Source: an uncultured Bacilli bacterium
Lineage (GTDB): Bacteria; Bacillota_I; Bacilli_A; RFN20; CAG-288
DNA: 64,000 nt
Direction: 5' to 3'
Assembly (NCBI GenBank): GCA_944349335.1
Contig: CALVMW010000001.1
Coordinates: forward strand, 80,309 to 144,308
A model generated the notes under the pieces. The model ran no database searches. It was not told the DNA's origin and saw only the letters and a program-made list of their open reading frames with translations. Below are positions 56,986-58,773 of this stretch, one piece after another. Both the position numbers and the translations under genes were made by a program. Position 1 is the first letter of the stretch, and every line of letters begins with the position of its first letter.

Positions 56986-58773
56986 TTGCTAATAACTCTA
57001 AAGATGTATATAATTTTTATGTTTATGTATATATATAGTTTAGCTGAAATAAATCCTACTTCGGACTCTTTCTTTATACCGCTTATAATCGTCTTAATAT
57101 TGATGATTATCTTTTTGATTGTTGCTATTACAATCTCAAGAATCGTCTCTACTAATAGAGGGCATAATCGTATAGATAGTAACGTTAGAATTTATACTTA
57201 TAATTATGCTAAAAACACCTTTACTTGCTTTGATAAACTTAATATTCGAAATGTTAAAGAATATTCAGAGATCGATTTTTATTCACAATTCACAGCTTCT
57301 GATAAATATCGATTACAAGAATGGCTGAAAAATCTTTCTCAGAATAAAAATGTATCTGATTATATTCAATGCGATATTAGAATTAAAAAGAAAGGTAAGA
57401 GTGTTCCTTCCTTTATCGCTTTAACCTCCATAAACAGAGAAAAAAATACGATCCACTTTGAATCACATCTTCTTCCCTTCTCTAATTACCAATCTTCTAA
57501 TCCCAAGAAGAAAAATAAGAAATTCTTATTAGACAAGTTTGAAAAATGTGTCGATTTTATGGAAAAGAATAAAGATAAAGAGTCGATAGGTGCTACTTTT
57601 TATATTAATCTTTATCTTCCGGAAAATAAGAAAAATGATAAAGGTTTATTAGATTTAGCGATACTTTCAAATCCTATTAAAGAAACACTCACTAGTTATT
57701 TAAATACCTATCGAAGAATGATTTGTATCGATGAGAATACTTTTATGATAATCGATACAAAAGTGATCTCTAAAGCTATGGCCTTAGAATTAGCTACTTC
57801 ATTTCAAACTGCCTTAAGGCAATGCATAAATCACACTATTGATTCAACTTCTGTCCGTTTTGCTATCGGTTTATCTACCGGTTTCTTCTATGAGGATTTA
57901 GATAGCGCTAAAGAGCAATCCTCAATGATGGCAGAAGCTATCACAAAAGGTGATTATGATCGAGAAATACTTTTCTATGATCCTAATTTCTTTATCAAAG
58001 AAAAGAAGAGAAAGAGCGATTTAGAAGATGTAAAGATGCTTATTAAAAATTCTACTTACCGCCTTTATTTTAATCCGACAATCGATGTTCGCTCTTTTAC
58101 ACAATCCTTCTACTTTACTAATGTTGTGCCGCACGGTACTGAGATTAAACATTTCTCAGAAATCTTACAAATGAGCACCAATTATAAAAATGGTAAGTTA
58201 CAACTTATTTCAAGCTTGATTGAAAAAATCACTATGATAGCCAAGCAAAAAGAAGGTAATAAAACTTTTTCTCTACCGATAATTTATTCAGCTATCCCAG
58301 AACTATTAAAAGCTAGGCCGCACAACTTAAAAGATGATATATTATTTATCTTGGTCTTAAAAGAAAGTGACTTAATAGCATATATTGATGATTTACGAAA
58401 TGTTATCAGCACATTGAAAGACTTAAAAAAGAGAGGATATTATCTAGGTCTAGATATCGCTAACCCCACTTCTCTTTTACCTTCAAAAATCTTAAATCTA
58501 TTTTCCTACATTTTCATCTCCTCAACATTTACAACTATCGATAATCCGATGAATACTTTGAAATTGATTGAAAATGACTATTGCAGCTTAGCGAAGATTC
58601 CTCTAGTGTATTATGGTTTTAAAGACACTAATAATATTGGGCTTTGTGCTCATTATAGTGGAGTGATCTTCCAATCTGGCAAAATAGCTAGCGCTTCTTC
58701 GATACTCGAAGATATAAGTGAAGATAAAATTAATATGCTAAAAGAAGAACTACAAGAAAATATAGAGAGGTAA
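56986..58773 (+). CDS. membrane-anchored protein with degenerate GGDEF-like and EAL-like domains (tentative)
   Basis: N-terminal TM helices; RFAIGLSTGFFYED resembles a degenerate GGDEF region; YRLYFNPTIDVRS and LGLDIANPTSLL...YIFISSTFTTID resemble the EAL-domain start and a DDFGTG/KIDRSF region with catalytic residues replaced. Confidence 0.4.
   Translation: MLITLKMYIIFMFMYIYSLAEINPTSDSFFIPLIIVLILMIIFLIVAITISRIVSTNRGHNRIDSNVRIYTYNYAKNTFTCFDKLNIRNVKEYSEIDFYSQFTASDKYRLQEWLKNLSQNKNVSDYIQCDIRIKKKGKSVPSFIALTSINREKNTIHFESHLLPFSNYQSSNPKKKNKKFLLDKFEKCVDFMEKNKDKESIGATFYINLYLPENKKNDKGLLDLAILSNPIKETLTSYLNTYRRMICIDENTFMIIDTKVISKAMALELATSFQTALRQCINHTIDSTSVRFAIGLSTGFFYEDLDSAKEQSSMMAEAITKGDYDREILFYDPNFFIKEKKRKSDLEDVKMLIKNSTYRLYFNPTIDVRSFTQSFYFTNVVPHGTEIKHFSEILQMSTNYKNGKLQLISSLIEKITMIAKQKEGNKTFSLPIIYSAIPELLKARPHNLKDDILFILVLKESDLIAYIDDLRNVISTLKDLKKRGYYLGLDIANPTSLLPSKILNLFSYIFISSTFTTIDNPMNTLKLIENDYCSLAKIPLVYYGFKDTNNIGLCAHYSGVIFQSGKIASASSILEDISEDKINMLKEELQENIER

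Follow-up and report, generated by a model that had tools for sequence, protein, structure and literature searches.

What does a protein with GGDEF- and EAL-like domains do when both domains have lost their signatures and the organism around it may otherwise lack the machinery for cyclic di-GMP (c-di-GMP)? The question is raised by a gene in a 64,000-nucleotide (nt) stretch of DNA, hereafter the window, from an uncultured Bacilli bacterium of the GTDB order RFN20 (contig CALVMW010000001.1, positions 80,309 to 144,308 of the forward strand). A first-pass annotation, made from the letters alone, had described the open reading frame (ORF) at 56986-58773 as coding for a membrane protein with catalytically dead tandem domains that either acts as a c-di-GMP receptor of the LapD/YkuI type or may have been repurposed. 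The evidence favors the second of these options. On balance, the protein is probably a c-di-GMP-independent signaling or scaffold pseudoenzyme, in which a single-pass membrane anchor and a PAS domain precede a dead GGDEF-EAL tandem, and its expression would be coupled to that of prolyl-tRNA synthetase (ProRS).

It takes a family profile or a structure model to reveal the relationship to GGDEF and EAL proteins. The direct check proposed in the annotation, with the Pfam hidden Markov models (HMMs) PF00990 and PF00563, gave no match to the window protein at E values up to 10. PF00990 likewise found nothing at E ≤10 in 5 close relatives and nothing at E ≤0.1 in 10 relatives spread over the family. 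A few relatives had full-length but sub-threshold PF00563 matches, the best of them, P0060, reaching 26.7 bits with a gathering threshold of 31.3 bits, and no family member attained a curated Pfam or NCBIfam threshold. The sole NCBIfam match of the window protein was a partial one of 22.6 bits to the model of the GGDEF-EAL protein HmsP, at residues 249-370. This model was matched weakly by 6 of 6 close members (best 4.5e-08), and the phosphodiesterase models DosP, PRK10060, DibA, and Tlr1612 were matched weakly by single close members (two for Tlr1612).

Against the sequences of the PDB, phmmer with the window protein returned nothing relevant and a 6-sequence profile returned nothing. A 140-member profile retrieved FimX (8.8e-12), PA0575 (7e-10), and DosP (4e-9) and, more weakly, Lmo0131 (3e-5), MorA (1e-4), and LapD (1.6e-3). 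Run in a word-indexed search against 5.8 billion proteins, the same profile retrieved few family members but also proteins labeled by Pfam as REC-PAS-GGDEF-EAL (P0221; 5.8e-17) and GGDEF-EAL (1.5e-14). An AlphaFold2 model of the window protein (predicted local distance difference test [pLDDT] score of 80.4) gave 113 Foldseek matches at E ≤1e-3. The top ones were PAS-GGDEF-EAL or GGDEF-EAL proteins (2e-18 to 1e-11), headed by the PAS-GGDEF-EAL protein PA0861 (2e-18), and DosP, MorA, PA0575, LapD, YkuI, and FimX were also among the matches. Structure prediction, the other check that had been proposed, thus revealed very strong fold similarity, clearly the opposite of the outcome that the annotation had named as refuting its reading. 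As the profile, NCBIfam, and model/Foldseek tests all agree, the homology to GGDEF and EAL domains is real and not a chance resemblance of motifs.

The ORF is present as annotated and comprises 595 amino acids from a TTG codon (56986..58773, + strand, in the ORF list). In the family alignment, 135 of 140 relatives start at a Met aligned with ORF residue 12 (ATG 57019), and the database protein P0001, which is 99% identical to the window protein, has 584 amino acids; the real coding sequence is therefore 57019..58773. Residue numbers throughout are those of the ORF starting from TTG 56986, and subtracting 11 gives the position in the real protein. A consensus scan placed the -10 box of a promoter-like site (TATAAT, 57009-57014) so that it ends 4 nt before this ATG, and inspection of the sequence ahead of the ATG revealed no Shine-Dalgarno (SD) sequence. 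For these two reasons the mRNA may be leaderless, a suggestion that depends on a consensus promoter match only. The features of the gene and its product are as follows.

56986..57014, + strand: promoter-like site TTGCTA-17-TATAAT; it matches the consensus, which by itself does not speak for function
57019..58773, + strand: coding sequence of the PAS/GGDEF-like/EAL-like protein, 584 amino acids plus stop, from the starts of relatives and P0001
ORF residues 12 to about 28: acidic N-terminal tail of ~17 residues, from a hydropathy scan
57070..57138, + strand: single transmembrane anchor, residues ~29-51, from the hydropathy scan; R/K-rich residues then follow
57181..57480, + strand: cytoplasmic PAS domain, residues 66-165; the best-conserved domain
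57481..57537, + strand: basic low-confidence linker, residues 166-184 (NPKKKNKK), with pLDDT <50 at residues 166-175
57538..57978, + strand: GGDEF-like (pseudo-diguanylate cyclase) domain, residues ~185-331, from profile alignments and fold matches
57730..57744, + strand: position of the GG[DE]EF signature, D249-E-N-T-F253; family consensus S-D-N-E-I
57856..57882, + strand: RFAIGLSTG, residues 291-299, corresponding to the canonical 'vSiGia' (SxGxA) strand downstream of the signature
57979..58053, + strand: interdomain helix between the GGDEF-like and EAL-like parts, residues 332-356 (DSSP helix 333-355); aligns with the GGDEF-EAL linkers of DosP and PA0575
58054..58755, + strand: EAL-like (pseudo-phosphodiesterase) TIM barrel, residues ~357-590, from the model and fold matches
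58444..58473, + strand: LGLDIANPTS, residues 487-496, on the canonical (a)lDDFGTGyS segment; degenerate metal-binding loop

The membrane segment reported in the annotation stands, but not its plural. The hydropathy scan detected exactly one transmembrane segment in 133 of 140 relatives, and in the AlphaFold2 model a helix spans residues 30-58. Several transmembrane helices were thus rejected, the first predicted helix being largely an artifact of the upstream TTG start. The positive-inside rule suggests an N-out/C-in topology for the anchor.

Beyond the anchor lies a PAS domain that the annotation had overlooked. The model has the expected five-stranded antiparallel sheet with flanking helices, and the conserved residues are R68, F82, F98, F102, W113, H157, E159, and S160; in seven PAS columns, one residue is common to at least 80% of the members. 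Mean pairwise identity within the family is 27% for the PAS domain, 18% for the GGDEF-like domain, and 22% for the EAL-like domain. With respect to close relatives, the PAS domain of the window protein is 53-55% identical, compared with 25-40% for the other domains. The linker that follows has a family median isoelectric point (pI) of 10.2. Of the two C-terminal domains, the first is modeled with the palm-like beta-alpha-alpha-beta-beta-alpha-beta core of GGDEF proteins and the second as the TIM barrel of EAL proteins.

We then asked what is left of the functional sites in the two domains. Alignment columns were mapped on the family HMM with three reference proteins, an active EAL protein (DosP), an active GGDEF protein (PA0575), and a degenerate receptor (FimX), and mapping was repeated with the canonical proteins P0221 and P0222; the columns agreed except for a one-residue shift in the DDFGTG loop. 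Residues were counted over 140 family members. The signature of the GGDEF-like domain falls on DENTF, where the first Gly is found in 8/140 members, the second Gly in 5/140, and the Glu of position 4 in 85/140. The RxxD motif of the I-site corresponds to N240..R243, with R in 3/140 members and D in none of the 140. The annotation was right that the signature is lacking; its choice of RFAIGLSTG as the degenerate signature was rejected, as the alignments place the signature at residues 249-253. G295 of RFAIGLSTG is kept in 129/140 members.

The EAL-like domain is as degenerate. In the window protein, the Q of YQP is replaced by N363 (Q in 18/140 members), EAL by F377-T-N379 (E in 5/140), the R of ExLxR by V381 (R in 11/140), the metal-binding Asn by I433 (6/140), the catalytic Lys by F510 (0/140), and the E of EGVE by Y543 (5/140). 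ExxE corresponds to V457..E460, the first E being present in 1/140 members and the second in 102/140. DDFGTG corresponds to D490-I-A-N-P-T495, with the first D in 3/140 and the second in 0/140; alignments with canonical proteins thus bear out the annotation, which had placed LGLDIANPTS on this segment and noted the loss of both EAL and DDFGTG. The Q of QG is retained in the window protein as Q563 but is found in only 15/140 members. Any one family protein retains at most 3 of the 12 canonical EAL residues, whereas FimX, in the same alignment, retains the Q of YQP, E-x-L-x-R, the Lys, and QG.

Judged from these alignments, both nucleotide domains are pseudoenzymes: the A-site, the I-site, and the EAL constellation of metal-binding, catalytic, and substrate-binding residues are gone, all catalytic residues and nearly all ligand-binding residues being lost across the family. 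The degeneracy is therefore ancient and maintained, since it holds for the whole family. Profile, Foldseek, and residue counts together support the annotation's description of catalytically dead tandem domains behind a membrane anchor. The protein probably neither makes nor breaks c-di-GMP, nor would it bind it at the canonical sites. By the same residue analysis, the label 'EAL domain-containing protein (putative c-di-GMP-specific phosphodiesterase)' that some pipelines give to members is misleading.

How widespread is this protein? A word-indexed search with the window protein found 5 relatives, and an exhaustive profile search found 234 cluster representatives (50% identity) at E ≤1e-3, 184 of them at ≤1e-10. 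Nearly all of the 234 are 560-630 amino acids long (~580) and match end to end. Where a source gives a name, it is 'hypothetical protein' of Bacilli bacterium, Firmicutes bacterium, or Candidatus Enterosoma merdigallinarum; an occasional automatic label is 'EAL domain-containing protein' (Ca. Scatoplasma merdavium, UniRef A0A9D9GSP2) or a COG-style name in IMG. All of these clusters come from uncultured gut Bacilli with small genomes (RFN20 and relatives), and no cultured carrier was found; 21 of 21 GTDB species-representative loci are from gut or rumen metagenome-assembled genomes. The closest named relative is Ca. Enterosoma, of the GTDB order RFN20, family CAG-288 (PMC8035907). RFN20 genomes are small, lack several amino acid biosynthesis pathways, and use TGA as a stop codon, and most of them lack a complete peptidoglycan pathway (PMC7301438).

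Genomic context was analyzed in 31 loci, i.e., the window, 21 close loci (L001-L021; close clade only), and 9 distant ones, whose family members are P0100, P0040, P0080, P0209, P0203, P0142, P0215, P0089, and P0211. GC content ranges from 34% to 57% across the loci and is 26-36% in the window. Over the 415 kilobases (kb) made up by the window and the 30 other loci, the family HMM detected one copy of the gene per locus, and none of the 31 loci contains a frameshifted or truncated copy. Two distant members, P0215 (L028 5001-7163) and P0089 (L029 5001-7178), are 720-725 amino acids long, ~135 residues over the norm.

We also looked for c-di-GMP machinery elsewhere, of which the annotation had taken the organism to be otherwise devoid. 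Pfam analysis of the 47 other ORFs of the window revealed no GGDEF, EAL, HD-GYP, or PilZ domain but housekeeping and surface proteins instead. Searches of the 415 kb, which amount to under a tenth of any one genome, using phmmer with DosP, FimX, and PA0575 fragments and the family HMM detected no other GGDEF/EAL gene. No c-di-GMP riboswitch was found in the scanned window and loci, and no c-di-GMP domain is listed among the Pfam annotations precomputed for the nine distant loci. Lineage alone is no argument for the absence of such proteins, because the mollicute Acholeplasma laidlawii has 14 GGDEF/EAL proteins (PMC2408644); a literature search on GGDEF/EAL proteins in Mollicutes found nothing specific.

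The second feature that the annotation had overlooked, and the most informative one of the context, is the gene that follows. The annotation had correctly placed the gene between acpP and proS; the neighborhood in the window is composed as follows.

56680..56919, - strand: acyl carrier protein gene (acpP), divergent; PF00550
58776..60206, + strand: proS, archaeal/eukaryote-type ProRS; Pfam PF00587, PF03129, PF09180
60216..61979, + strand: Xaa-Pro aminopeptidase gene (pepP; M24 peptidase, Creatinase_N by Pfam), third gene of the putative operon
61955..62488, + strand: SpoU-family RNA methyltransferase gene, fourth gene of the putative operon; PF00588
62664..62696, + strand: first convincing terminator-like hairpin and T-run after the promoter-like site; a consensus match only

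In all 31 loci, the family gene is followed directly by a co-oriented proS, which starts -2 to 60 nt (median, 13) from its stop codon. In the window, only 2 nt separate the stop codon of the family gene (58771-58773) from the ATG of proS, whose SD sequence, GAGAGG, sits within the 3' end of the family gene. Two weaker terminator-like matches occur inside the coding sequence of the family gene (e.g., + strand 57865-57882). The 21 close loci contain the divergent acpP and then the family gene, proS, pepP, and the SpoU gene, wherever the contig reaches each of them: pepP follows proS in 19/21, L009 and L015 ending at proS, and acpP (60-84% identity) was found in 18/21, the upstream flank of the other three being shorter than 200 nt. 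Past acpP, loci of the window clade carry genes for tRNA-Asn and tRNA-Glu, which in the window are divergent as well. The acpP gene has no adjoining fatty acid synthesis genes.

The pairing extends to the nine distant loci, where upstream genes vary (YitT/DUF7662, AAA_14, GtrA, MatE, AlaDH, and others) and acpP is absent from those that have upstream flank. There, pepP is present in 5/9 (L024, L025, L028, L029, and L030). As the proS pairing held in 31/31 loci despite divergent flanks, it is the most persistent feature of the context. The family gene evolves much faster than its operon partners: across the close clade, its product is 31-43% identical, compared with 66-75% for ProRS, 51-59% for PepP, and 54-67% for the SpoU protein, and in five distant loci compared (L022-L026), it is 19-30% identical to the window protein, with 52-59% for ProRS. 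No T-box or other Rfam leader was found ahead of the pair in the window or nine loci. The gene opens a compact, conserved unit whose second member is proS and whose third is usually the gene for Xaa-Pro aminopeptidase. This arrangement is consistent with cotranscription or with gene order inherited within a clade, and is not proof of a functional link.

Genes for tRNAs adjoin some distant loci. The family gene is preceded, at a distance of ~100-140 nt, by a divergent tRNA-Ser(CGA) gene in L022 (9822-9912, - strand), L023 (5772-5862, - strand), and L024 (5812-5900, - strand), and a tRNA-Ser(GCT) gene follows proS in L022 (13318-13410, + strand) and L023 (9263-9353, + strand). The window also codes for a stand-alone protein with an aminoacyl-tRNA editing domain (PF04073, YbaK/ProX type; 33371-33835, + strand), directly after a formyltransferase gene. 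Such a protein fits the archaeal-type ProRS, which lacks an inserted editing domain.

Taken together, these data make a pseudoenzyme acting without c-di-GMP the reading that we tend to favor. Sensing or dimerization at the membrane would fall to the conserved PAS domain, and output, by conformational change or protein interaction, to the dead GGDEF-EAL tandem. Expression of the gene would be coupled to that of proS and often also of pepP, and the partner of the protein would plausibly lie within this translation and proline-handling module. That the gene is functional is argued by its 234 mostly full-length clusters, its single copy per locus, and the PAS domain being its most conserved part. 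There is precedent for such a mode of action in degenerate E. coli GGDEF/EAL proteins that act through interactions, namely, CsrD, itself listed as a degenerate GGDEF-EAL protein, RflP, and BluF (PMC5635695). Degenerate GGDEF/EAL proteins form a known class in which few mechanisms are known. What is new here is a large uncurated variant from RFN20-type Bacilli, degenerate at both sites, with a PAS domain and a single-pass anchor, and locked to proS.

Among the closest known systems is CsrD of E. coli, with a membrane anchor, degenerate GGDEF and EAL domains in tandem, and a c-di-GMP-independent function. The family protein resembles it in having an N-terminal anchor and a GGDEF-like/EAL-like tandem without catalytic signatures, both domains being degenerate at catalytic and ligand sites alike. 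However, CsrD has two transmembrane helices and a HAMP-like region, whereas the family protein has one helix and a PAS domain. CsrD acts in the decay of CsrB/CsrC, for which no counterpart has been shown here, and the context with proS differs. The CsrD model was absent among the NCBIfam matches, i.e., no sequence orthology to CsrD was seen. The pI and charge profile, taken as a proxy for CsrD-like RNA binding, was not diagnostic.

Other EAL-like proteins bind partner proteins rather than c-di-GMP, namely, YdiV/RflP, STM1697, and BluF. Unlike the family protein, they have neither a GGDEF-like domain nor an anchor, YdiV/RflP and STM1697 being stand-alone EAL-like proteins and BluF a BLUF-EAL protein, and their partners (FlhD and the MerR-like BluR) are not known in the lineage of the window. 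RbdA (PA0861), DosP, and MorA have the same PAS-GGDEF-EAL order and are the best Foldseek matches (2e-18 to 4e-16), but they are active enzymes (phosphodiesterases and/or cyclases) whose signatures are intact, whereas the family protein has lost every signature. GdpP, the c-di-AMP phosphodiesterase of Firmicutes, is also found in Bacillota, in an operon with a translation gene, and has transmembrane, PAS, degenerate GGDEF, and DHH/DHHA1 parts. The N-terminal layout of anchor, cytoplasmic PAS, and degenerate GGDEF domain is the same, but the output domain is an EAL-like barrel and not DHH/DHHA1. A relationship to GdpP was rejected, as there was no Pfam match to DHH/DHHA1 and no GdpP chain among the PDB matches at E ≤1.

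Several points weigh against a c-di-GMP-independent scaffold. 'Scaffold' or 'regulator' is the default assignment for a pseudoenzyme. A noncanonical site for c-di-GMP or for another nucleotide would be compatible with the sequence. For the linker between the PAS and GGDEF-like domains, the prediction is a disordered, basic stretch and not a signaling helix, which is atypical for an output controlled by a PAS domain. The proS pairing could be gene order inherited in one clade, and the pepP-SpoU order is also partly inherited. Finally, the survey that found no diguanylate cyclase covered less than 10% of any one genome.

Of the alternatives, the one that survives best, though we regard it as fairly unlikely, is that the palm or the barrel has been adapted to bind or act on another molecule, such as a nucleotide, tRNA-Pro or another RNA, or a proline metabolite, and that it directly controls ProRS or PepP. 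The invariant pairing with proS and the frequent presence of pepP speak for it, as do the acidic barrel residues that are kept (E460 in 102/140 members and D/E462 in 130/140), the Glu conserved at position 4 of the GGDEF motif, and the basic character of the PAS domain and linker. However, the conserved barrel residues occupy canonical structural positions, such as the second E of ExxE, with no evident new site, and the window protein itself lacks several of the acidic residues of the family consensus (S507 and G552). Moreover, the family median for the EAL-like domain lies on the acidic side, which does not favor RNA binding, and we found no literature linking ProRS with GGDEF/EAL proteins.

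A related but less probable proposal is that, in these gut Bacilli with small genomes and amino acid auxotrophies, the family is dedicated to the archaeal-type ProRS or to the proS-pepP proline module as its partner or regulator; a PAS sensor tethered to the membrane, with the fossil GGDEF-EAL module as its output, would gate the localization or activity of ProRS or the charging of tRNA-Pro. The fixed pairing with ProRS makes this a concrete, testable hypothesis, and the same pairing is what inherited gene order could also account for. If the proposal were true, an aminoacyl-tRNA synthetase would for the first time be tied to regulation by the c-di-GMP domain superfamily, and the hosts might be organisms that have given up c-di-GMP itself. 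Should c-di-GMP enzymes truly be missing from these genomes, the family would offer a clean natural case of a second-messenger module that outlived its messenger, and as such a test ground for what pseudoenzyme scaffolds do.

We consider it equally doubtful that the protein is a receptor of the LapD/FimX/YkuI type, in which a degenerate EAL domain or a GGDEF I-site binds c-di-GMP made elsewhere and relays the signal to a membrane or cytoplasmic output. The module is built like those of LapD and FimX, with a membrane or sensor domain followed by degenerate GGDEF and EAL domains. FimX is the best profile match among solved proteins and shares the dual degenerate module, LapD is likewise anchored in the membrane, and the fold matches to both are strong. 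Relatives among the 'Mollicutes' in the broad sense can have c-di-GMP signaling, as A. laidlawii does, and the incomplete coverage of the cyclase survey leaves room for a source of the messenger. In contrast, receptors of this type retain the nucleotide-contacting residues of the EAL domain. The contacts kept by FimX are lost family-wide here (the Q of YQP, the E and R of E-x-L-x-R, the Lys, and the Q of QG; see counts above), and RxxD is missing as well. Moreover, no GGDEF, EAL, or PilZ domain and no riboswitch was found within the 415 kb, LapD was the weakest GGDEF-EAL match of the profile, and LapD contains HAMP and periplasmic domains, whereas the family protein has a single transmembrane segment, a tail of ~17 residues, and a cytoplasmic PAS domain. 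The loss of active-site, I-site, and EAL contacts across the family disfavors the enzymatic activities and this receptor role alike, and the annotation's LapD/YkuI-like receptor is not what the residues suggest.

Last, a functionless, decaying relic of a c-di-GMP enzyme, kept only because it carries the proS promoter, would be in keeping with the fast evolution of the gene next to proS and with the loss of all catalytic residues but is very improbable given the intact ORFs, full length and uniform in size and architecture, in 234 clusters, the confident structure model, the seven conserved PAS columns, and the intact copies in all 31 loci; a pseudogene was rejected, as intact ORFs are conserved across the family.

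Other parts of the window deserve mention. Two tandem genes at 51982-53967 (- strand) and 53979-56270 (- strand) code for large leucine-rich-repeat proteins of the BspA type (PF13306, E 1e-105 to 1e-113), the second with a lipoprotein-like N terminus and a Ser-rich linker. Three ORFs, 3805-5097, 43590-44327, and 44345-46321 (all - strand; 430, 245, and 658 amino acids), had no Pfam match at E ≤1e-3 to 1e-4. A cluster resembling a defense island lies amid housekeeping genes at 5819-8584 (- strand) and 10310-11431 (- strand) and comprises a DUF1016/YhcG PDDEXK nuclease whose C-terminal domain is apparently truncated, an AAA_21/AbiEii-like ATPase, and a DUF5677 protein. At 37770-39757 (+ strand), a gene for agmatine deiminase (PF04371) adjoins one for a carbon-nitrogen hydrolase (PF00795), a pair that corresponds to the route from agmatine to putrescine.

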